UHGV virus genome: UHGV-0237655
DNA length: 38,406 nt
Source of the DNA: a virus
Strand: one strand, 5' to 3'
Shown: positions 2,653-33,089 of the stretch, piece by piece
Layout of the letters: the number at the start of each line of letters is the position of its first letter
Position numbering within the stretch: the first letter of the stretch is position 1
The notes under the pieces: model-generated
The model's database searches: none
The model's input: only the letters and a program-made list of their open reading frames with translations
Told to the model about the DNA's origin: nothing
Made by a program: the position numbers and the translations under genes

Positions 2653-5600
2653 GTGGCGAATAAGAAAATAAAAGGAATCACAATAAAATTCGGTGCGGAT
2701 ACAACGGCACTCAGCAAAGCTTTGAAATCCGCGGAAGATACATCAAAAAGTCTTGGTAGCGAATTAAGCTCTGTAAATAAACTATTAAAATTTGACCCGA
2801 AGAATACGCAGTTGCTTGCGCAGAAACAGGAGTTATTAAGTAAACAGGTTGAAAATACCAAGAAAAAGCTGGAATCCTTAAAACAGGCGCAAGGGGAAGT
2901 AGAAAAGAAGTTCAAATCTGGAGATATCGGAGCGGAAGAGTGCCGAGAATTTCAGAGAGAAATTGCGAAAACGGAACAGGATTTAAAATCTTACACCACG
3001 CAGATTAGCCGGATGGAGACGGAGCAGAAATCCCTAAAGGAAAGTACGAAGCAGTTGCAGACGCTGTTCGAAGCAACTGGAAAGTCTCTTGATGATTTTC
3101 AGGACGTGCTCGGCACAAGGCTGACAAATGCTATAAAAAATGGAACTGCAAACAGTGACGATCTGACTGTTGCACTCAACAAAATAGGAAAAGAAGCGCT
3201 TGGGGCAGAAACTGACCTGTCAAAGATGAAAGCTACACTGAATAAGGTAGATGACGGGGCGAGTATTGATGAAGTGAGCAACGACCTGAACGAGATGAAG
3301 AAGAATTCAGATGAAGCAGAGGAAGCACTTGACGGAATTGGAAAAGGAATTGTCGCAGGAAACATGATGCAAGCCGCTGAAATTATAGCAGATGCAGGGC
3401 AAAAGATAAAAGAGTTTAGCGACAATGCAAAAGAAGCATTTAATGAGGTAGATGCCGGATCTGATGCAATCATAACAGCGACAGGTGCAACAGGAAAACT
3501 TGCTGAGGGAATGGATAATGTCTATAAAAGCATTGCGTCCAGCCTTCCAATAGATAACCTTGAAAACATTGGAAAAGTAATTGGAGAGATGAATACGCAG
3601 TTCGGGTTCACCGATGAAAAATTGCAACATGCATCTGAAAAAATGTTGAAGTTTTCGGAAATTACTGGATCCGATGTGGTAGCATCAACGCAAAATGCAA
3701 AACAGGCGATTAGCGTATTCCACATGTCGAGTGATGATCTAGACAGCGTACTTGATGATGTCGCAAAAACAGCGCAAGACACGGGCGTATCTGTAGACGA
3801 TCTATTCAAAAAAGCGATCGAAGGCGCACCACAGTTACAGGAATTGGGATTGAGTTTCTCTGGATCGGTAAAGCTTCTGGGGGCATTTGAGCAAGCTGGT
3901 GTTGATGGATCTGCTGCATTAAGTAGCTTATCAAAGGCTGCGGTAGGTTATGCAAAAGACGGTAAATCACTCAGTGACGGATTGGCAGAAACGCAGGATA
4001 AAATTTTGAATGCGACTAACCAGACGGAAGCCTTAAATGCTGCTGCTGAGGTATTCGGAACAAAAGGTGCTGTGAGGATGGTAGATGCCATCCAGAGAGG
4101 CGTTCTGAACCTGAATGACCTAGGAGGCGCTGCATCAGACAGTCAAGGAACTGTGGAAACGACTTTCGAAAATACTTTAGATCCGATTGACGAAGAAACG
4201 GTTGCGCTAAATAACGCAAAGTTGGCTATGGCTGAGTTTGGTGGTGCGATTTCAGAAGCAGTAGCCCCAATCCTTGAAACACTTGTTCCTATAATTCAGA
4301 AAGTTGCAAAGTGGTTTAGCGGTCTTTCTGAAACAAGCAAGACTATTATAGTCGTAATCGGTGGGATTGCAATTGTAATTTCGCAATTACTGCCGATTCT
4401 TGCGGTTGTAGCTGGTGGAATAGCAGCGGCTGGAGGTGCAATGGCATTTTTGACAGGAGTGCTATTACCAGTAACCGGAATTATTGCCGGAATTATTGCA
4501 GTGGTTGCAGCAGTTGTGGCAGTAATAAAAAACTGGGGAGACATTACAGATTGGCTATCCGAAAAATGGAATGCATTTAAAGATTGGATGTCTGGGTTAT
4601 GGGATACCATATCCGAGAAAATCCAAGATGTATGGAACGGAATTAAAGATTTCTTTGCCGATATTTGGCAACAGATTTACAACGTGATAGAAGGGCCACT
4701 AAAATTCATTGAGGGAACAATTGGTGCTGTCATGTACGCAATATACGCCGTTATTTACACAGTGTGGGAAGTGATCAAGTTCGCGCTTGAAAAGGCGTGG
4801 AAATGGATCAGTGATACTGCAAGTGCTGTTTTCGTTCCAGTAGCGAATTTCTTTTCCGATATCTGGAATGGAATCAAAGATACTGCAACCGGAATCTGGA
4901 ACAGCATTAAGGATACGCTCGGAGGAATTTGGGGGTCGATCAAGCAGAATGCTATGGACGCTTTTTCTTCCGTTTGGAAGTTTATTAAAGACGGATTTAA
5001 CAATCTCAAGGACACTCTTGGAGGAATCGTGAAAGGGATTGCGAACGCAATTGTGAAGCCGATTGGCGGTGCGGTAAATGGCGTAATTAACGGTGTAAAC
5101 TGGGTGCTCGACAAAGTAGGATCGGACAAGCAATTTGCATTGTGGGAAGTCCCGAAGTTTGCAAGAGGAACTGGTGGCATCCCAAAAGACACGCTAGGTA
5201 TCGTAAACGACCAGAAAGGCTCTACATACAAAGAAATGATCGTTCCGCCACATGGAAAACCATTTATTCCAGAAGGAAGAGATGTAGTTTTGCCCCTGGA
5301 AAAGGGAACAAAGATAATGCCAGCGAACCAGACGAAAACTTTTCTGGAAGAACTTCCACATTTTGCAAACGGAATCGGTGACTTTTTTGGTGGTGTCTGG
5401 GATACGGTAAAAGACTTTACGGGAAATGTATGGGATTATATCACGCATCCGAGTAAGATCGTGCAGATTGCGATTGATAAATTTACGGATTTAACGGGAG
5501 CGTTTGAACCGTGGATTTCCGTGGCAAAAGGAGCGGTTAATACGGTGTTTGACAGCGTGGTCGGATTTGTGAAAGGAATTTTTGATACGCAATCGAACGT

Positions 5601-14146: not shown

Positions 14147-14395
14147 ATGAAGAAGATTAACTGGATTGTAAGAATTAAAAACAAGGCATTCTGGGTAGCA
14201 CTGATCCCGGCACTCTTGCTGTTGATACAGGCAATTGCGGCAGTGTTTGGTCTTACCATCGACCTTGGAGACCTTGGAGATAAGTTATTGACTGTAATCA
14301 ATGCGCTCTTTGCAGTACTGGCAATCCTTGGTGTAGTGGTAGACCCAACAACACCGGGAACAGGAGATTCAGATCGGGCGCTTACATATAAATAG
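14147..14395 (+). CDS. holin (LL-H / phage_holin_4_1-like)
   Basis: 82 aa with two TM segments and the characteristic C-terminal VVDPTTPGTGDSDRALTY motif. Confidence 0.7.
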   Translation: MKKINWIVRIKNKAFWVALIPALLLLIQAIAAVFGLTIDLGDLGDKLLTVINALFAVLAILGVVVDPTTPGTGDSDRALTYK

Positions 14396-14401
14396 ATTCT
14401 G

Positions 14402-14430
14402 GAGAGCTTGGAAACAGGCTCTCTTTTATT
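14402..14430 (+). terminator. intrinsic terminator between holin and endolysin genes
   Basis: Stem GAGAGC/GCTCTC with a 10-nt loop, followed by TTTTATTAT. Confidence 0.45.
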
Positions 14431-14448
14431 ATGCAAGGAGGTGAGAAC

Positions 14449-14538
14449 ATGAGCGAACAGAACGAATTTGGCAGAGTATCCGCAGAGGAACTGGAAAAGG
14501 TATTTGAGACAGAAGAACAGGAGGAAGAGAAAGAATGA
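14449..14538 (+). CDS. 29-aa acidic mini-ORF coupled to the endolysin start
   Basis: AAGGAGGTGAGAAC then ATG. Encodes MSEQNEFGRVSAEELEKVFETEEQEEEKE. Its TGA overlaps the amidase ATG (ATGA). Confidence 0.3.
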   Translation: MSEQNEFGRVSAEELEKVFETEEQEEEKE

Positions 14539-15338
14539 AAATTGGCTTAAGGGGAGGACACTCCCCAAATTGTAAAGGTGCAATCGGTCTGATCGATGAG
14601 CAGGCAGAAGTGCGGAAGATCTACAATGAGCTTGTACCAATGCTACAGGCAGTCGGTCATACTGTGGTTGATTGTAATTCCAACGCATCCAATGCGTCTG
14701 GTGAACTGTCTGACGGCACAAATAAGGCGAATAGTGCCGGGTGCGATATTTACGTAACTTTGCACATGAATGCGGCAGGAGCGGCGTCAGCTGGCGGCAC
14801 AGAGGTGTGGTTATATGATGCATCCAATCCGACTATGAACATGATTGCAAGTAACATCTGCAAGAATTTTGAAGAAAAAGGATTTGTTAACCGCGGTGTT
14901 AAATATAGTTCCGGCTATCATGATCTGAATGCATCCAATATGCCCGGTATGATTGTGGAGACATTATTCTGCACCGGAACAGATGATGTAGCCAGATACC
15001 GGAGCTTAGGAGCAAAGGGAGTTGCAGAACTGATCGCAAAGGCGATCGACAGCAAAGCATCAACAGGAAGTGGACAGGGAAATAATCAGAATACAGGAGA
15101 TCAGGAAGGAGAAGAGACTATGCAGTGCATGTTTACAGTAGAAGGAAAAGGATGTGTTTATTGGATGCATGATGGAGTGGTTACAGCTTTAGCACACCCT
15201 GACGAGTTAAAAATCATTCAGCAAATTTATAAGGATAACTATGGACATGATATGCCATGTTACAGTTGGAGCAAGCCAGCGCCATGGCATATTAGGCTGA
15301 TGGAACCATTATATCGTGAACCCGTAAAATCTATTTAA
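14535..15338 (+). CDS. N-acetylmuramoyl-L-alanine amidase endolysin (Amidase_3 type) with C-terminal wall-binding-like region
   Basis: N-terminus MKIGLRGGHSPNCKGAIGLIDE...YVTLHMNA is typical of MurNAc-LAA catalytic domains. Directly follows the holin. Confidence 0.8.
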   Translation: MKIGLRGGHSPNCKGAIGLIDEQAEVRKIYNELVPMLQAVGHTVVDCNSNASNASGELSDGTNKANSAGCDIYVTLHMNAAGAASAGGTEVWLYDASNPTMNMIASNICKNFEEKGFVNRGVKYSSGYHDLNASNMPGMIVETLFCTGTDDVARYRSLGAKGVAELIAKAIDSKASTGSGQGNNQNTGDQEGEETMQCMFTVEGKGCVYWMHDGVVTALAHPDELKIIQQIYKDNYGHDMPCYSWSKPAPWHIRLMEPLYREPVKSI

Positions 15339-15578: not shown

Positions 15579-15609
15579 CCGAAAGCACCGTCATTTCGGC
15601 ACTTTCGGG
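15579..15609 (-). terminator. hairpin at the integrase 3' end
   Basis: CCGAAAG / CTTTCGG stem spans the int stop codon. Followed on the minus strand by U-rich AGCAUAUUUAUUAG. Confidence 0.35.
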
Positions 15610-17123
15610 TACACATCGATTGTGAATTCAGAGTTTTTCTGGTTTTTCTTATTTCGTTTCGTCTTAGTCAGAACAATCCTGTCAATCAGCTGTCTCAAGG
15701 CGCTGTTCTTTTCCGAGACAGTCAGAGAGTCCCACTCACTCAATAAATTCTTGCACTTCGGCACAAAATTTTTCCGGTTTGCCTGCCTTGCGATTGTGGT
15801 ATGCAAATCTTCACGGGCAGCAGTGATGTTATTCATGCAGTCTCTGATCCGCTGCTCCAGAGCATTGGACCGTTCAAGGAAAATTTCTTTCGTGTAAATT
15901 CCCTGCTCTAAAAAATCGAATAAGGATTCTCGCTGTTTTAAAAGAGTCTGATGCTCTGTTTCAAAATTCGTGACGATCATTTCTTTTGCAGCAATGGCAG
16001 CAGCGTCTTCCTCATGAGTGTCGGTAAATTCATACTTAACGATGTAGTCTTTCAGCCATTCAAGCAGAGCTTCTTCCAGTTCATCAATCCGGATCCCGAC
16101 TGTGGAGCACTCTGTATACTGACAGATCAGCATATCATAGGGCGTTTTCGTTTGCGCTTTCTTACGGACCATAAGCCGATCGCATTGTGAGCATCTGACC
16201 AGACCTGCAAATAGATTTTGTATCGGTCTGTCGTTTCTGACTGGAGCAGAAAAACATCCTTTTGGTTGGTTCGCGCGTTTAAATAAGTCTGGGCTGATCC
16301 GTGGAGCCCATGCCGCATCTGAGAGGATGTAATCTGTGGCTTTTGGACGGGACTTTACTACGCGCCCATCTTTTACAGCTCTGACAGTCTTACGATGCCC
16401 CCAGCGGACTTTACCGATGTTTGCCGGATTCGAGATAATCCCTTTTAAAGTGGATGGAGTAAAAGGTTTGCCACTCCTTGCAAGGATTCCCATATTGGAC
16501 ATATAGGTACAGGCTTTCTGGTATCCGTACTGCTTATTTCCGCACAGATCATACATTAGATCAAGGACGGGTGCTTCTGTCTGATGTGGGGCGAGAGAGT
16601 AGTGTTTTCCATCCGGCGCAATGACGCGCTCCCATCCATAAGGGGCAACATTACCAACGTAATATCCGTCAGAACTGGAACGTTCCCTGCCACGCTGCAT
16701 TCGGCGCTTGATTGTGGCGTACTCCCGGCGGCTCATAAATAAACTGAACTCAAAGTACTCATTATCATACTCGTTTGCAGGATCGTAGGTTTTATTCGGT
16801 GTTACAATCCGGGTGTTGGAATAGAAAAATGCACGCTGCACACGCCCCTGATCGATCGTATCACCTCTGGCCAGACGATCTACGTCCATTACGAGGGCAC
16901 CATCCCACATACAGGCTTCCACCTCGGATAGGACTTGCGTCATGACTGGGCGGGCATCGATACTGTCTCCGGACACAACTTCCCGGTAAATCGCACCGAT
17001 CGGAAGAGAGAGAGTCTTTGCCAACTCTAACAGGGTAGTAATGTGGCGTTCCAGAACATCAATCCCTAGCGCTTCCAGTTCGGCGTCTTTTCTGGATTTT
17101 CTGGCGTAGATAAAATAAGACAT
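15591..17123 (-). CDS. int: large serine recombinase (integrase)
   Basis: 510 aa. N-terminal IYARKSRKD with catalytic-Ser motif Y-x-R-x-S, resolvase and recombinase domains, C-terminal zinc ribbon CSQCDRL...CQYTEC. AGGAG RBS. Confidence 0.85.
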   Translation of the reverse strand: MSYFIYARKSRKDAELEALGIDVLERHITTLLELAKTLSLPIGAIYREVVSGDSIDARPVMTQVLSEVEACMWDGALVMDVDRLARGDTIDQGRVQRAFFYSNTRIVTPNKTYDPANEYDNEYFEFSLFMSRREYATIKRRMQRGRERSSSDGYYVGNVAPYGWERVIAPDGKHYSLAPHQTEAPVLDLMYDLCGNKQYGYQKACTYMSNMGILARSGKPFTPSTLKGIISNPANIGKVRWGHRKTVRAVKDGRVVKSRPKATDYILSDAAWAPRISPDLFKRANQPKGCFSAPVRNDRPIQNLFAGLVRCSQCDRLMVRKKAQTKTPYDMLICQYTECSTVGIRIDELEEALLEWLKDYIVKYEFTDTHEEDAAAIAAKEMIVTNFETEHQTLLKQRESLFDFLEQGIYTKEIFLERSNALEQRIRDCMNNITAAREDLHTTIARQANRKNFVPKCKNLLSEWDSLTVSEKNSALRQLIDRIVLTKTKRNKKNQKNSEFTIDVYPKVPK

Positions 17124-30230: not shown

Positions 30231-30451
30231 ACAGGGAAGCCATGAAGCGCAGAAGGGAGACAGCAGACACCGTGAGAAAGATAGAAGCACACAAGATGGC
30301 AACGAGAAAGCCCTGTGAGACAGCTTTAAAGCAAAAGGGGCATAAAGCCTTCGCCTGTGATTTTAAAAGGGCTGACAGAACAAATACGGACACTCTGGAA
30401 TACATAGCAAGCAAGTACAACATCAAAAAGCTAATTCCGGGAGGTGATTGA
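30227..30451 (+). CDS. hypothetical basic protein (74 aa)
   Basis: ATGA-coupled start. Confidence 0.4.
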   Translation: MNREAMKRRRETADTVRKIEAHKMATRKPCETALKQKGHKAFACDFKRADRTNTDTLEYIASKYNIKKLIPGGD

Positions 30452-30452
30452 G

Positions 30453-30860
30453 GTGGATAAGAATATAATCTATGAGTACATGGATGCGAAAGCACTTGTG
30501 AAAGAGACAGAGGAAGATATCAGACGGCACAGAAGAAAGACGTTTGTGCAGGATAAAGTGACAGGCAGCAATCCAGAGTTTCCGTACCAGCCGCAGAGTT
30601 TTAACATTTCCGGATGCGTAGAGAGCACAGTGAGTATAGATGAGGAGGAACGATTACTGGAAGAGCGGAAGAAAAATGCGAAGCAGATCAAAGTAAAAGC
30701 GGAGCGTGTAATCAATAAAGCACCGGTTCGGATGCAGAGGATTATCCGGTTCAGGGTCATGCAGGGGCTGACGTGGGATGAAGTGGCTGCGAAGATGAAA
30801 GGGAATTGCACAGGAGATAGTGCAAGAATGGAATTTCAGAGGTGGATGAAAGAAAAATAA
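30453..30860 (+). CDS. ArpU/RinA-like late transcriptional regulator (sigma region-4-like)
   Basis: GTG 30453, 8 nt after GGGAGG. C-terminal RIIRFRVMQGLTWDEVAAKM resembles sigma-70 region 4 / ArpU. Position immediately upstream of the packaging module. Confidence 0.55.
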   Translation: MDKNIIYEYMDAKALVKETEEDIRRHRRKTFVQDKVTGSNPEFPYQPQSFNISGCVESTVSIDEEERLLEERKKNAKQIKVKAERVINKAPVRMQRIIRFRVMQGLTWDEVAAKMKGNCTGDSARMEFQRWMKEK

Positions 30861-30930
30861 AAGTTTGTTCGTTTTGTTCACATTGTTCGTTTTAAATAAT
30901 ATATAGTATACGATGAAAGAAGTAAATACA

Positions 30931-30966
30931 AAAGCGCGGTTGATCAGACCGCGCTTTTGATTCTTG
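30931..30966 (+). terminator. strong intrinsic terminator after the late regulator gene
   Basis: AAAGCGCGGT-tgatcag-ACCGCGCTTTTGATTCTTG. Confidence 0.7.
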
Positions 30967-30969
30967 AAC

Positions 30970-31143
30970 TTACAAGCTAATTCGTGCAATTAGGAGATAT
31001 ATAATTACTACAAAGATGTAGCTGAAAGTTCTCGAGCTACACTTTTTAATGACTTTATGTAATTTTCTACCTAAAGACAGTCCGAAAAGACTGAGTAAGA
31101 ACAAGAAAAAGTCCGTACTAGCTATCACCTCAAATAACTTCAT
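30970..31143 (-). CDS. 57-aa two-helix hydrophobic peptide (possible type I toxin-like or membrane peptide)
   Basis: Minus-strand AAGGAG 8 nt before ATG. Encodes MKLFEVIASTDFFLFLLSLFGLSLGRKLHKVIKKCSSRTFSYIFVVIIYLLIARISL. Only minus-strand gene in a 1-kb non-coding island. Confidence 0.35.
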   Translation of the reverse strand: MKLFEVIASTDFFLFLLSLFGLSLGRKLHKVIKKCSSRTFSYIFVVIIYLLIARISL

Positions 31144-31453
31144 ACATCCTTCTCCTTTTTATGGATTTAGGGCTTACATCAGAAAATTGAATGCCTAGAG
31201 AAGAATGCGAGGTAAATAGTTAGAGCGTCCTTAAGGAGGTAGGAAGATTTGAGGTGATAGCTTAAATTCCTACTTTTAAAATCGTGTAGTTAAATTTTGG
31301 CATACTGGTTTCCTCCTTTGCTATATTCCTCCTTATTATTTATGGTGCAAAATTGCTACCAGATTTATTTTACATGTTTTTTTGCTTTTTTTCAATTAGA
31401 ATATAATGATATATATAAAACAAAATTAGAGACATTTTTCGAGGTGTTTTTAT

Positions 31454-31498
31454 GCCGTGGCAAATGTAGGGCAGACAGGTTCGACTCCTGTACACGGC
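31454..31498 (+). ncRNA. tRNA-like minihelix (acceptor stem plus T-arm only)
   Basis: GCCGTG(G) pairs with (A)CACGGC. T-arm ACAGG-TTCGACT-CCTGT carries the canonical GTTCGAnTCC loop. Only 14 nt lie between acceptor and T-arm, so there is no D or anticodon arm. Confidence 0.3.
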
Positions 31499-31695
31499 TT
31501 CGGATACAAAGTGTTGACTGCTGGACGGTCCTTAAATGATTAAGCGCGCGATCGGCTTTGCATCTGATTGGTACCAAAACGCAGATATCCGCAGATCTGC
31601 AAAACAAACAAAAATAGATTCAGCAATCTATATTTAGTGTAATCAGCGTACCTGAGTGCTGCGGATAGGGTAAAGGATGTCAACTGGCATCCTAC

Positions 31696-31768
31696 GGGTG
31701 TATAGCTCAGTTGGTAGAGCGATCGGCTGTTAACCGATGTGTCGCAGGTTCGAGTCCTGCTATACCCG
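31696..31768 (+). tRNA. tRNA-Asn (anticodon GTT)
   Basis: Manual cloverleaf: acceptor GGGTGTA/TATACCC (one G-U), D-arm GCTC/GAGC, anticodon stem ATCGG/CCGAT with loop CTGTTAA, 5-nt variable loop, T-arm GCAGG-TTCGAGT-CCTGC, discriminator G. No encoded CCA. Confidence 0.9.
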
Positions 31769-31772
31769 TTGT

Positions 31773-31856
31773 GGACTACTGCAAGGTTCCTCCTTTCTTA
31801 TAGATTTCAGTTGTGTGTTTTGTTGGCATTATAATTCTTTCATTGTGCAGTAGTCC
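31773..31856. promoter_or_regulatory. 11-bp inverted repeat GGACTACTGCA / TGCAGTAGTCC enclosing a consensus TATAAT (31830-31835) upstream of the packaging genes
   Basis: Perfect 11-bp arms 62 bp apart, starting 5 nt after the tRNA. -10 box without a -35, consistent with an activator-dependent late promoter and/or cos-region element. Confidence 0.35.
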
Positions 31857-31912
31857 TAAATTCTTAGCATCCAGAGATGGGTGCTTTTATTATGCTTAAA
31901 AAGGAGAAGAGC

Positions 31913-32119
31913 ATGGGAATTGTTAAAAGATTGTTATGCAAGCATGACAAGACGGAATATGTCAGCACAGATCTTGTAAGACAGAATGATGGTAGTTTTA
32001 TCACAGAGCACATGTGGAAATGCAAGAACTGTGGGAAGCTGATTGAGGGGAAGAAACATGGGAAAGTTTTACGAAAGCCGAAAGTGGAAAAAGAAAAGAG
32101 GAAACATATTAAGGCGTGA
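31913..32119 (+). CDS. small zinc-ribbon-like protein (68 aa)
   Basis: AAGGAGAAGAGC then ATG 31913. CKHD...CKNCGK Cys pairs; Lys-rich C-terminus. Confidence 0.4.
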   Translation: MGIVKRLLCKHDKTEYVSTDLVRQNDGSFITEHMWKCKNCGKLIEGKKHGKVLRKPKVEKEKRKHIKA

Positions 32120-32387
32120 TAACTATCAATGTCAAGAGTCTAAGAGATACGGGAAGTATGCGGAAGCTACGACAGTACACCATATCTATCCATTGGAAGA
32201 GTATCCAGATCTTGCACTGATTGACTGGAATCTCATCAGCATGTCTACGGCGCAACACGACCGGATGCATGACAGGAAGACGGACAAGGTGACAAGCCTT
32301 GGAATGTACTGGCAGAGGAAAAGAAGAAGGGAGTTTGAAGCATGGAAGAAATCAAGATGTATGCAATCAGATGGAAAGGAAAAGTAA
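32058..32387 (+). CDS. HNH endonuclease (terminase-associated)
   Basis: DNYQCQES...VHHIYPLEEYPDLALIDWNLISMSTAQHDRMH matches the HNH motif. Adjacent to the terminase genes. Confidence 0.7.
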   Translation: MGKFYESRKWKKKRGNILRRDNYQCQESKRYGKYAEATTVHHIYPLEEYPDLALIDWNLISMSTAQHDRMHDRKTDKVTSLGMYWQRKRRREFEAWKKSRCMQSDGKEK

Positions 32388-32726: not shown

Positions 32727-33089
32727 ATGGCGAGATACATACCACAAAGGCAGACGATTATTGACAGGACAGTCAAGTATATGAAAGAGCTGGGAACCTA
32801 TAAAGTACAGTATAAACAGGTGATAGAGATCTACGCAGATATGATCTATCAGTATAATGTCTTAAGCAAGCAATTTGAAGAGTCTGGATACGAAGTGATT
32901 TTGGATACAGAGAAAAGTGGGGGTAAAAAAAGCCCTATTCTCGTGAGTCTCGAAAATCTCCGGAAGGACATCGGAACGTATTCTGACAGACTGATGTTGA
33001 ATGCGAAAACATACAATGCGGAAATTGAACAGCCGAAAAAAGAGAAATCTGCATTTGCGCTATTACTGGAGAAACAGCAGGGAAAGTAA
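32727..33089 (+). CDS. terS: terminase small subunit (P27 family)
   Basis: AAGGAGGTGAGAATAG then ATG. 120 aa, immediately upstream of and abutting TerL. P27-like N-terminus. Confidence 0.65.
   Translation: MARYIPQRQTIIDRTVKYMKELGTYKVQYKQVIEIYADMIYQYNVLSKQFEESGYEVILDTEKSGGKKSPILVSLENLRKDIGTYSDRLMLNAKTYNAEIEQPKKEKSAFALLLEKQQGK

Follow-up and report, generated by a model that had tools for sequence, protein, structure and literature searches.

The DNA analysed here is the 38,406-nucleotide (nt) stretch of the virus genome UHGV-0237655, called the window below. All positions refer to it, and coordinates of minus-strand elements that run from a higher to a lower number are listed 5' to 3'. The window holds a complete-looking temperate, Lachnospiraceae-type siphophage of about 38 kilobases (kb) with almost all of its genes on the plus strand. 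In a non-coding island of about 1 kb, 3' of a gene for a RinA-like late activator, lies a minus-strand gene for a peptide of 57 amino acids (aa). We found that the start of this gene is covered by long-range RNA helices that are conserved across many phages, and that a short upstream open reading frame (uORF) ends where the masking structure begins. An initial annotation had taken the peptide open reading frame (ORF) for the only plausible gene of the island; this no longer holds, because the 13-codon uORF (minus strand) and a tRNA-Asn gene (plus strand) are also located there. The peptide gene and the elements that pair around its start are the following:

30970–31143, minus strand: gene for the 57-aa peptide (ATG at 31143–31141), from the ORF call, the protein family and an AlphaFold2 model
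31144–31157, minus strand: Shine–Dalgarno sequence (SD) AAGGAG (31157–31152) and an out-of-frame AUG (31147–31145); 31155–31144 are the 3' strand of helix P2
31120–31135, minus strand: 3' arm of helix P1 inside the ORF, which begins 5 nt past the AUG with the third base of codon 3 and extends to the end of codon 8
31247–31262, minus strand: 5' arm of P1, AGCUAUCACCUCAAAU, an exact inverted-repeat arm with covariation
31233–31246, minus strand: CU-rich segment CUUCCUACCUCCUU, of which CUUC (31246–31243) pairs with GAAG of AUGAAG (helix P1b) and the remainder is the 3' strand of helix P0
31209–31219, minus strand: box P1', CUAUUUACCUC, which repeats the 5' arm in degenerate form and can pair with the 3' arm (31122–31131) as an alternative to P1
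31197–31208, minus strand: anti-SD box GCAUUCUUCUCU, the 5' strand of P2, pairing with 31155–31144
31171–31195, minus strand: hairpin P3, GGC-AUUCA...UGA-UGUAAG-CC, with a conserved UGUAAG internal loop and a covarying inner stem

The 57-aa ORF with its AAGGAG ribosome-binding site, the reverse complement of 31152–31157 and 8 nt before the ATG, was already part of the initial annotation and is now supported by a protein family. A word-indexed search gave 8 homologous clusters with 64–98% identity, and an exhaustive profile search over 1.8 billion representatives together with a second profile search expanded the family to about 50 protein clusters. The members keep a near-constant length of 55–65 aa; C35 is invariant and usually sits in a C-N-P motif, D11-F12, F40 and Y49 are nearly invariant, and most members have glycine at positions 18 and 21 (LG..G motif). 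The AlphaFold2 model (predicted local distance difference test score, pLDDT, of 74) shows a short helix at residues 3–7, a helix at 10–34, a turn of the C35-N-P type and a second long helix at 37–56. With 57 aa and two predicted helices the product is of the size of small hydrophobic membrane peptides, below about 60 aa. Judged by the family, the constant length and a ratio of non-synonymous to synonymous polymorphism (pN/pS) of 0.42 over the ORF, we conclude that this is a real gene. The index of the assembly collection lists one homologue, P0039, in 496 blocks, with 236 contigs on record for its cluster. Homologous cassettes were found in about 20 metagenomic phage lineages (numbered with an L below), with peptide identity down to 25–38%.

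No significant relative of the family appeared in Pfam, NCBIfam, PADLOC, PHROGs or the PDB sequences, and no toxin family was matched; Hok/Gef homology in particular had no Pfam or NCBIfam match in any member scanned. The peptides resemble class II holins, which are likewise small phage proteins with two membrane helices, and some family members have a basic C-terminal tail. They differ in that the gene lies outside the lysis cassette and antisense to the late genes, and the weak matches to the 'holin' family phrog_2359 (7/40 members, E 0.008 or weaker) are not significant. A tblastn search of the GenBank phages with two family members gave no match, although its low-complexity filter may hide hydrophobic peptides. 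Back-translated patterns of the close family had no match in IMG/VR and GTDB and matched one additional locus in the JGI metagenomes, and literature searches found no description of this cassette.

The second element of the initial annotation that stands is a perfect 16-bp inverted repeat. Indeed, 31247–31262 on the plus strand is the exact reverse complement of 31120–31135, with the arms 111 nt apart. It is the sole 16-nt perfect inverted repeat within 300 nt in the whole window, and none appeared in 60 first-order Markov resamplings. Folding of the minus-strand transcript had been proposed as a check, and RNAalifold on eight lineages gave four nested helices, P1, P1b, P2 and P3, the first three of which lock the start region. 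P1b and P1 (31243–31262 with 31120–31141) bury the G of the start codon, codon 2 and codons 3–8, and P2, formed by the 31197–31208 box with GGAGAAGGAUGU at 31155–31144, covers the SD and the out-of-frame AUG. A covariance model built from the eight-lineage alignment detects the element in every family locus. The search for peptide and repeat in related phages ended with about 20 lineages that keep the same RNA architecture. In the window the model scores 174.5 bits on the peptide-sense strand versus 38.5 bits on the antisense strand.

The pairing is kept while the sequences change. In a 16-lineage alignment, which was fitted to the model's structure so that its pair counts are somewhat inflated, 94.5% of the cells are paired versus 79.6% in shuffles (0/500 reach the observed value) and 35–45% with slid partners, and compensatory changes occur in 28/38 pairs (P1 11/15, P1b 3/4, P2 9/11); for P1 alone, 96.7% of the cells are standard pairs. 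Two further analyses do not depend on this structure-fitted alignment, namely scans for ungapped arms and a control across lineages. The scans gave cognate arms of 13–18 bp with wholly different sequences in the distant members, among them AGCUAUCGUCUCAA in L095, GCUACUGUCUCUAAU in L097, GCCAUCGUCUCAAA in L101 and UAAGCACCACCUUGAUUA in L113; L115 and L118 differ from each other by CAACUUU versus CAGUUUU in the arm. In the control, the cognate P1 arm was the best or second-best partner in 16/16 lineages.

The same constraint is visible in the coding sequence. Among the nine closest lineages, hardly any variation is seen in the 49 nt surrounding the start and the 35 nt surrounding the 5' arm, and the remaining ORF drifts. 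Codons 1–9 have zero synonymous variants in 10 lineages (synonymous polymorphism, pS, 0.12 versus 0.58 elsewhere), and all changes in the codons of the P1 3' arm are non-synonymous (Val to Ala, Phe to Leu and Val to Thr), with a compensating change in the 5' arm. L089, for example, combines the arms ATCGCC and GGCGAT with the Val to Ala exchange, and L090 the arms CTCTAGT and ATTAGAG with Phe to Leu and the gain of one G-U pair.

These data bear directly on the explanation that the repeat acts at the level of DNA, as a cos or pac site, a site recognised by the terminase or a late-promoter operator, with a fortuitous ORF. The location would suit such a role: phages of this kind have their cos or pac sites, and also their late promoters, in the interval that separates the late activator from the HNH/terminase genes. 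However, G-U pairs are frequent in the helices and one strand scores far better than the other, the arms change in concert even where this alters the coding, and the closest isolated relatives, with which the packaging genes are shared, lack the repeat. It accompanies the peptide gene beside at least five terminase combinations; the cos or terminase recognition role that the initial annotation had kept as an alternative is thus contradicted by a repeat that travels with the peptide gene and not with the terminase type. On these three grounds, a pairing that is rich in G-U and favours one strand, covariation in which coding changes are compensated, and linkage to the peptide gene, we rejected a cos/pac or operator role, and regard a DNA-level element as extremely improbable.

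The covariation also identifies the element that masks the SD. The initial annotation had assigned this function to a CUCCUU placed at 31235–31240, which is actually the reverse complement of 31233–31238. Changes of the SD in five lineages, namely L005 (GGAAAAGG), L010 (GGGGAAGG), L093 (GGAGUAGAUG), L095 (GGAGGAGUCG) and L099, have their counterpart each time in the P2 box at 31197–31208 and not in the CU-rich segment, so that P2, and not CUCCUU, is the SD mask supported by covariation. Directly abutting this anti-SD box is P1', for which RNAduplex found pairing with the 3' arm in all lineages. It follows the arm changes in L089 (CGCCUC) and L090 (GCCUCU), and the combined P1' and P2 duplex amounts to -20 to -35 kcal/mol. 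From the covariation of P1, P1b and P2 we conclude that the ribosome-binding site is sequestered in the mRNA and that, as far as comparative sequence analysis can tell, the translation start is held by conserved covarying helices on the peptide-sense strand.

Several smaller observations concern the same region. Nearly all lineages, those of the distant subfamily among them, retain the UGUAAG of P3 (L109 has UAUAAG), and its flanking stems covary; GUAAG is complementary to CUUAC/CUUGC/CUUAU in ORF codons 15–17, and the loop could be a tertiary contact or a protein-binding site. The AUG at 31145–31147 (minus strand), 4 nt upstream of the peptide AUG and inside P2, would open an out-of-frame reading of 5 codons (MYEVI*). 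It is retained in the closest lineages except L099 and might be a decoy start. An SD-like GAGGUGAU in the 3' arm was considered as a downstream standby site, an idea that we dropped because the arms of the distant members have no SD resemblance. An 18-nt inverted repeat between 31149–31166 and 31892–31909 (89% complementary) arises because the peptide SD region AAAAAGGAGAAG recurs almost unchanged at the start of an ORF at 31877–32119 (plus strand), where it may act as SD for an internal ATG; the repeat is probably mere SD similarity. Among the Rfam families only tRNA reaches the gathering threshold in the window, and in E-value mode the matches over 30880–31700 are far under threshold and mostly centred on the terminator. 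Exact-pattern scans of IMG/VR and GTDB genomes for the arm sequences gave only single-arm chance matches in unrelated taxa.

Upstream of the helices, the predicted transcript carries a leader with the following features, listed together with the terminator at the other end:

31367–31395, minus strand: predicted sigma-70-type promoter, -35 TTGAAA (31395–31390), 17-nt spacer, -10 TAAAAT (31372–31367), 10/12 matches
31344–31360, minus strand: 5'-terminal hairpin of the predicted mRNA, GGUAGCAAUUUUGCACC, from folding
31312–31332, minus strand: two GGAGG boxes, 31332–31328 as the upstream strand of P0 and 31316–31312 as the SD of the uORF, 8 nt before its AUG
31262–31303, minus strand: uORF, ATG at 31303–31301, 13 sense codons (MPKFNYTILKVGI), TAA at 31264–31262
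30929–30959, both strands: bidirectional intrinsic terminator, shared with the convergent RinA-like gene

This arrangement recurs in the family. Such a promoter lies 220–260 nt upstream of the peptide ATG in 18/20 lineages (none was called in L095 and L097), the 5' hairpin is kept with different sequences in L001, L005, L010, L089, L090 and L101, and the other lineages have a terminator at the equivalent position, again with different sequences. More specific is the position of the uORF. Pairing in P1 begins with the last A of the uORF stop codon. The uORF ends 121 nt upstream of the peptide ATG, and the two frames do not overlap. In 18/20 lineages an SD-driven uORF ends 0–3 nt from the 5' arm or inside it, which places a stop codon at the base of the masking structure, as leader coupling would demand. 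The uORFs themselves vary in length from 11 to 29 codons, and their peptide sequence is unconserved, with no shared motif beyond M-A-K in some.

A leader ORF directly before a stem that masks a downstream start is also the layout of the erm/cat attenuators, in which stalling of the ribosome on the leader peptide, caused by a drug or metabolite, would open the stem. However, these attenuators need a conserved arrest peptide and an inducer, whereas here it is the position of the stop codon that is conserved and no peptide motif in the leaders of 11–29 codons, and the downstream gene is not a resistance gene. A stall-sensing attenuator thus seems to us very unlikely.

The uORF may itself be controlled by the structure. 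The CU-rich segment 31233–31246 is predicted to pair with the GGAGG boxes and the 5' leader, forming P0 and closing the SD of the uORF. P0 is long and covarying in the distant subfamily, where it includes the uORF SD, and the cognate partner is best in 9/16 lineages, most clearly in this subfamily. P0 and P1 cross, which is why RNAfold shows them as alternatives.

A natural variant gives a further hint about the role of P1. Two IMG/VR contigs, L117 and L119 (locus ~1180–1720), are identical over 540 nt except for three changes: in L119 a 17-nt deletion, flanked by CAT microhomology, removes the P1 5' arm, a G to T exchange destroys the peptide SD, and one single-nucleotide polymorphism lies far upstream. 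By their sequences, the two look like a natural suppressor pair, and L119 would be consistent with a repressive function of P1 and with harm done by the product once it is unmasked.

The initial annotation had compared the layout with that of type I toxin mRNAs. The part of this claim that holds is the locked start on a small hydrophobic prophage ORF. The part that is not supported is the antisense RNA: no antisense promoter is conserved in position across the 20 lineages, and the plus-strand hairpin with T-run that had been reported within the ORF does exist (arms 31012–31023 and 31035–31046, 83% complementary) but fails the terminator scan and occurs only in the closest lineages. Moreover, the sense strand folds as well as the plus-strand hairpin region. 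With neither promoter nor hairpin conserved, the defining antisense antitoxin appears to be missing. One may nevertheless consider a classical type I toxin–antitoxin system, in which a membrane toxin is neutralised by an antisense RNA, either a dedicated small RNA or the late-operon transcript, and the leader only provides an inert primary transcript. Prophage type I modules are known in Clostridia (PMC7699646), the start region of our small hydrophobic ORF is multiply locked, and the L119 variant as well as a HicAB pair among the neighbouring accessory genes point in the same direction. In several lineages a box, TTGTTCGTTTTGTTCACATT, lies upstream of the cassette on the phage sense strand, and late transcription may cross the cassette antisense. 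The bidirectional terminator, however, should also stop incoming late transcripts, the peptide does not fit the single-helix, charged-tail pattern, and no toxin family is matched. Together with the lack of conserved antisense elements, this makes a classical type I system rather unlikely in our view.

The comparison with individual systems leads to a similar picture. The small hydrophobic ORFs of Firmicute prophages, CD0977.1/RCd11 of Clostridioides difficile and txpA/RatA and bsrG/SR4 of Bacillus subtilis, share the consensus ribosome-binding site with our gene, and prophage maintenance is their proposed role (PMC7699646). These toxins have 34–59 aa, one N-terminal helix followed by a charged tail, and mapped overlapping antisense RNAs; the known C. 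difficile prophage toxins are peptides of 34–47 aa with one helix and a basic tail (PMC7699646). Here, in contrast, we find two helices with a C-N-P turn, a uORF and no detected antisense gene. The hok/mok/sok system of plasmid R1 is closer in its logic: a small membrane peptide, an mRNA made inert by several mutually exclusive covarying long-range helices, a toxin whose translation depends on a leader ORF in hok, as we propose here, and a location on mobile elements. It differs in that mok overlaps hok, whereas the uORF found here is non-overlapping and would act, if at all, through the long-range P1. Nor did we find a Sok-like antisense promoter, a sequence relation to Hok, or evidence for 3'-end processing or a 5'–3' fold-back, and the host is Gram-positive. 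In tap/repA (R1) and repY/repZ (IncI-alpha, IncB), the stop codon of a short leader ORF likewise lies at the base of an inhibitory structure with long-range or pseudoknot interactions, and the terminating ribosome unfolds the structure for the downstream start, as we propose for the present leader. Those systems, unlike ours, control a replication initiator under an antisense RNA (CopA, Inc), whereas the leader described here precedes a gene for a membrane peptide and shows no sign of an antisense RNA.

As judged from sequence and architecture, the gene is therefore not a Hok, Fst, TxpA or C. difficile-type toxin. The sequence evidence shows an architecture like that of a type I toxin mRNA with leader-ORF coupling, built from an undescribed protein family and a new RNA leader motif that are widespread in gut Firmicute phages and for which the comparative evidence is exceptionally clear. 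With antitoxin RNA and toxicity being hypothetical, we do not claim membership in the type I toxin–antitoxin systems.

The surroundings of the cassette add information on what kind of gene this is. The neighbouring genes and the window's lysis and integration genes are:

30444–30860, plus strand: RinA-like late activator (phrog_36), convergent with the peptide gene
31695–31769, plus strand: tRNA-Asn, within the island
32043–32387: HNH endonuclease, downstream of the island
32727–33089: small terminase (terS), followed by the large terminase
14147–14395 and 14535–15338: holin and endolysin, the window's own lysis cassette (14147–15338)
15591–17123, minus strand: serine integrase

Compared with Ruminococcus gnavus phages, the flanks of the island are 81–92% identical, but the stretch from about 30960 to 31440 is absent from these otherwise related phages, which have a tRNA-Ala in its place. 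In nearly all loci with sufficient flank, the peptide gene lies antisense between a late-activator-like gene of 135–150 aa and the small terminase; the exception are the L010-type loci, where it stands beside an ORF6N-domain gene. Across the lineages it adjoins at least five different terminase combinations, which together with the preferred site indicates that the cassette behaves as a mobile accessory cassette and not as packaging machinery. Its absence from related R. gnavus phages and the holin and endolysin that the window holds of its own lead us to conclude from the sequence comparison that the cassette is accessory.

The gap between activator and terS also receives other genes. In L101, L102, L104 and L105 (positions ~3400–4040) a HicA/HicB toxin–antitoxin pair lies between the late activator and the peptide cassette, and DUF2971 or ORF6N-domain genes occupy the gap in other lineages, so that it seems to act as a hotspot of genes with accessory or defence-type functions. 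At 31440–31600 (plus strand) we noticed what remains of a second tRNA, not recognised by ARAGORN, comprising a T-arm copy CAGGTTCGACTCCTG at 31476–31490 (93% identical to the tRNA-Asn T-arm) within an acceptor-like GCCGTG...CACGGC pairing, and an anticodon-arm-like copy GCGATCGGCT at 31548–31557; in the related phage phiRg519T2 the corresponding position is taken by an intact tRNA-Ala. The box TTGTTCGTTTTGTTCACATT mentioned above lies directly after the RinA-like gene (30865–30905, plus strand) and contains the direct repeat TTGTTCGTTTT twice. This copy is kept after the late-activator gene in phiRg519T2, L013–L015, L090 and L101. A second copy with 80% identity stands at 31811–31830, followed by TATAAT (region 31811–31836, plus strand), just upstream of the late genes, and is flanked by a perfect 11-bp inverted repeat, GGACTACTGCA / TGCAGTAGTCC (31773–31783 / 31846–31856), immediately after tRNA-Asn. 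Going by its sequence and placement, the box may be the operator of the activator or a late promoter, in which case the cassette would sit inside the leader of the late operon.

An accessory gene in such a place could also encode a non-toxic lysogenic-conversion protein, active in superinfection exclusion or receptor masking, of which few copies are needed and for which the leader sets a very low constitutive output. The moron-like layout with own promoter and terminator, antisense in a hotspot of accessory genes, fits well, and LG..G, C-N-P, F40 and Y49 suggest a defined interaction over generic membrane damage. Known small exclusion proteins include two-helix hairpins, which the predicted fold of the peptide would resemble. 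Three to four interlocking covarying helices and a positioned uORF, however, exceed what a weak ribosome-binding site needs, and L119 suggests selection against derepression. We therefore hold this explanation to be unlikely.

Taken together, these results lead us to an explanation to which we give about an even chance: the cassette would be an accessory 'moron' gene for a membrane peptide that is translationally caged, released in coupling with translation of the uORF and toxin-like if overproduced. The mRNA would extend from ~31360 to 30925, with a leader of ~220 nt that keeps the 57-aa two-helix membrane peptide untranslated. As the P1 5' arm begins in the stop codon of the presumably strongly initiated 13-codon uORF, a ribosome that finishes the uORF must melt the base of P1. 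With the stop codon in its A site, the helicase reach of a ribosome covers roughly the outer third to half of P1. Translation of the uORF would thus transiently free the start region, a positive coupling of the kind known from mok to hok, tap to repA and repY to repZ. P0 would in turn gate the uORF by closing its SD, and since P1' and P2 can close the start region again, the output of peptide should be very low or conditional. Such a relay of locks would allow only rare or conditional translation of a peptide that would be harmful, and in this sense toxin-like, when overproduced.

Several points weigh against this caged-peptide explanation, in addition to the inflation of the pair counts noted above. 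The promoter, the transcript ends and the translation of both ORFs are predictions. Folds in which P1 is opened still close the start region through P1' and P2, so that the coupling may be small or transient, or even opposite in sign. The models leave P0 and P1 either coexisting as a pseudoknot or excluding each other. The uORFs of L093, a contig of 2.6x coverage, and of L097 stop 37–60 nt before the arm. Finally, L119 is a single case and could reflect the neutral decay of an already dead gene.

One may go a step further and speculate about a widespread, undescribed phage class of caged peptides that works without a dedicated antisense RNA. The P0/P1/P2 relay, perhaps in the form of a pseudoknot, would then convert the loading of ribosomes on the leader ORF into an all-or-none switch for a two-helix effector, and because the gene lies antisense in the late-operon leader, expression of the effector and late transcription would exclude each other. 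We consider this extension improbable; if true, the mutual exclusion would give lysogens a built-in safety or abortive-infection device.

If the caged-peptide explanation is correct, the cassette represents a new family of small membrane proteins that is widespread in gut Firmicute phages, together with a new RNA motif that regulates in cis, and neither is represented in Pfam, PHROGs, NCBIfam, PADLOC or Rfam. It would occupy a fixed insertion site, antisense before terS, in many of these phages. It would also extend hok-like, leader-ORF-coupled caging to Gram-positive phages, with the coupling acting at a distance via a stem that is anchored in the leader stop codon. The about 20 natural sequence variants already supply compensatory mutants and make this a compact, testable system, in which one could ask how ribosomes moving along a tiny ORF control the output of a dangerous gene, and how the prophage benefits from it.

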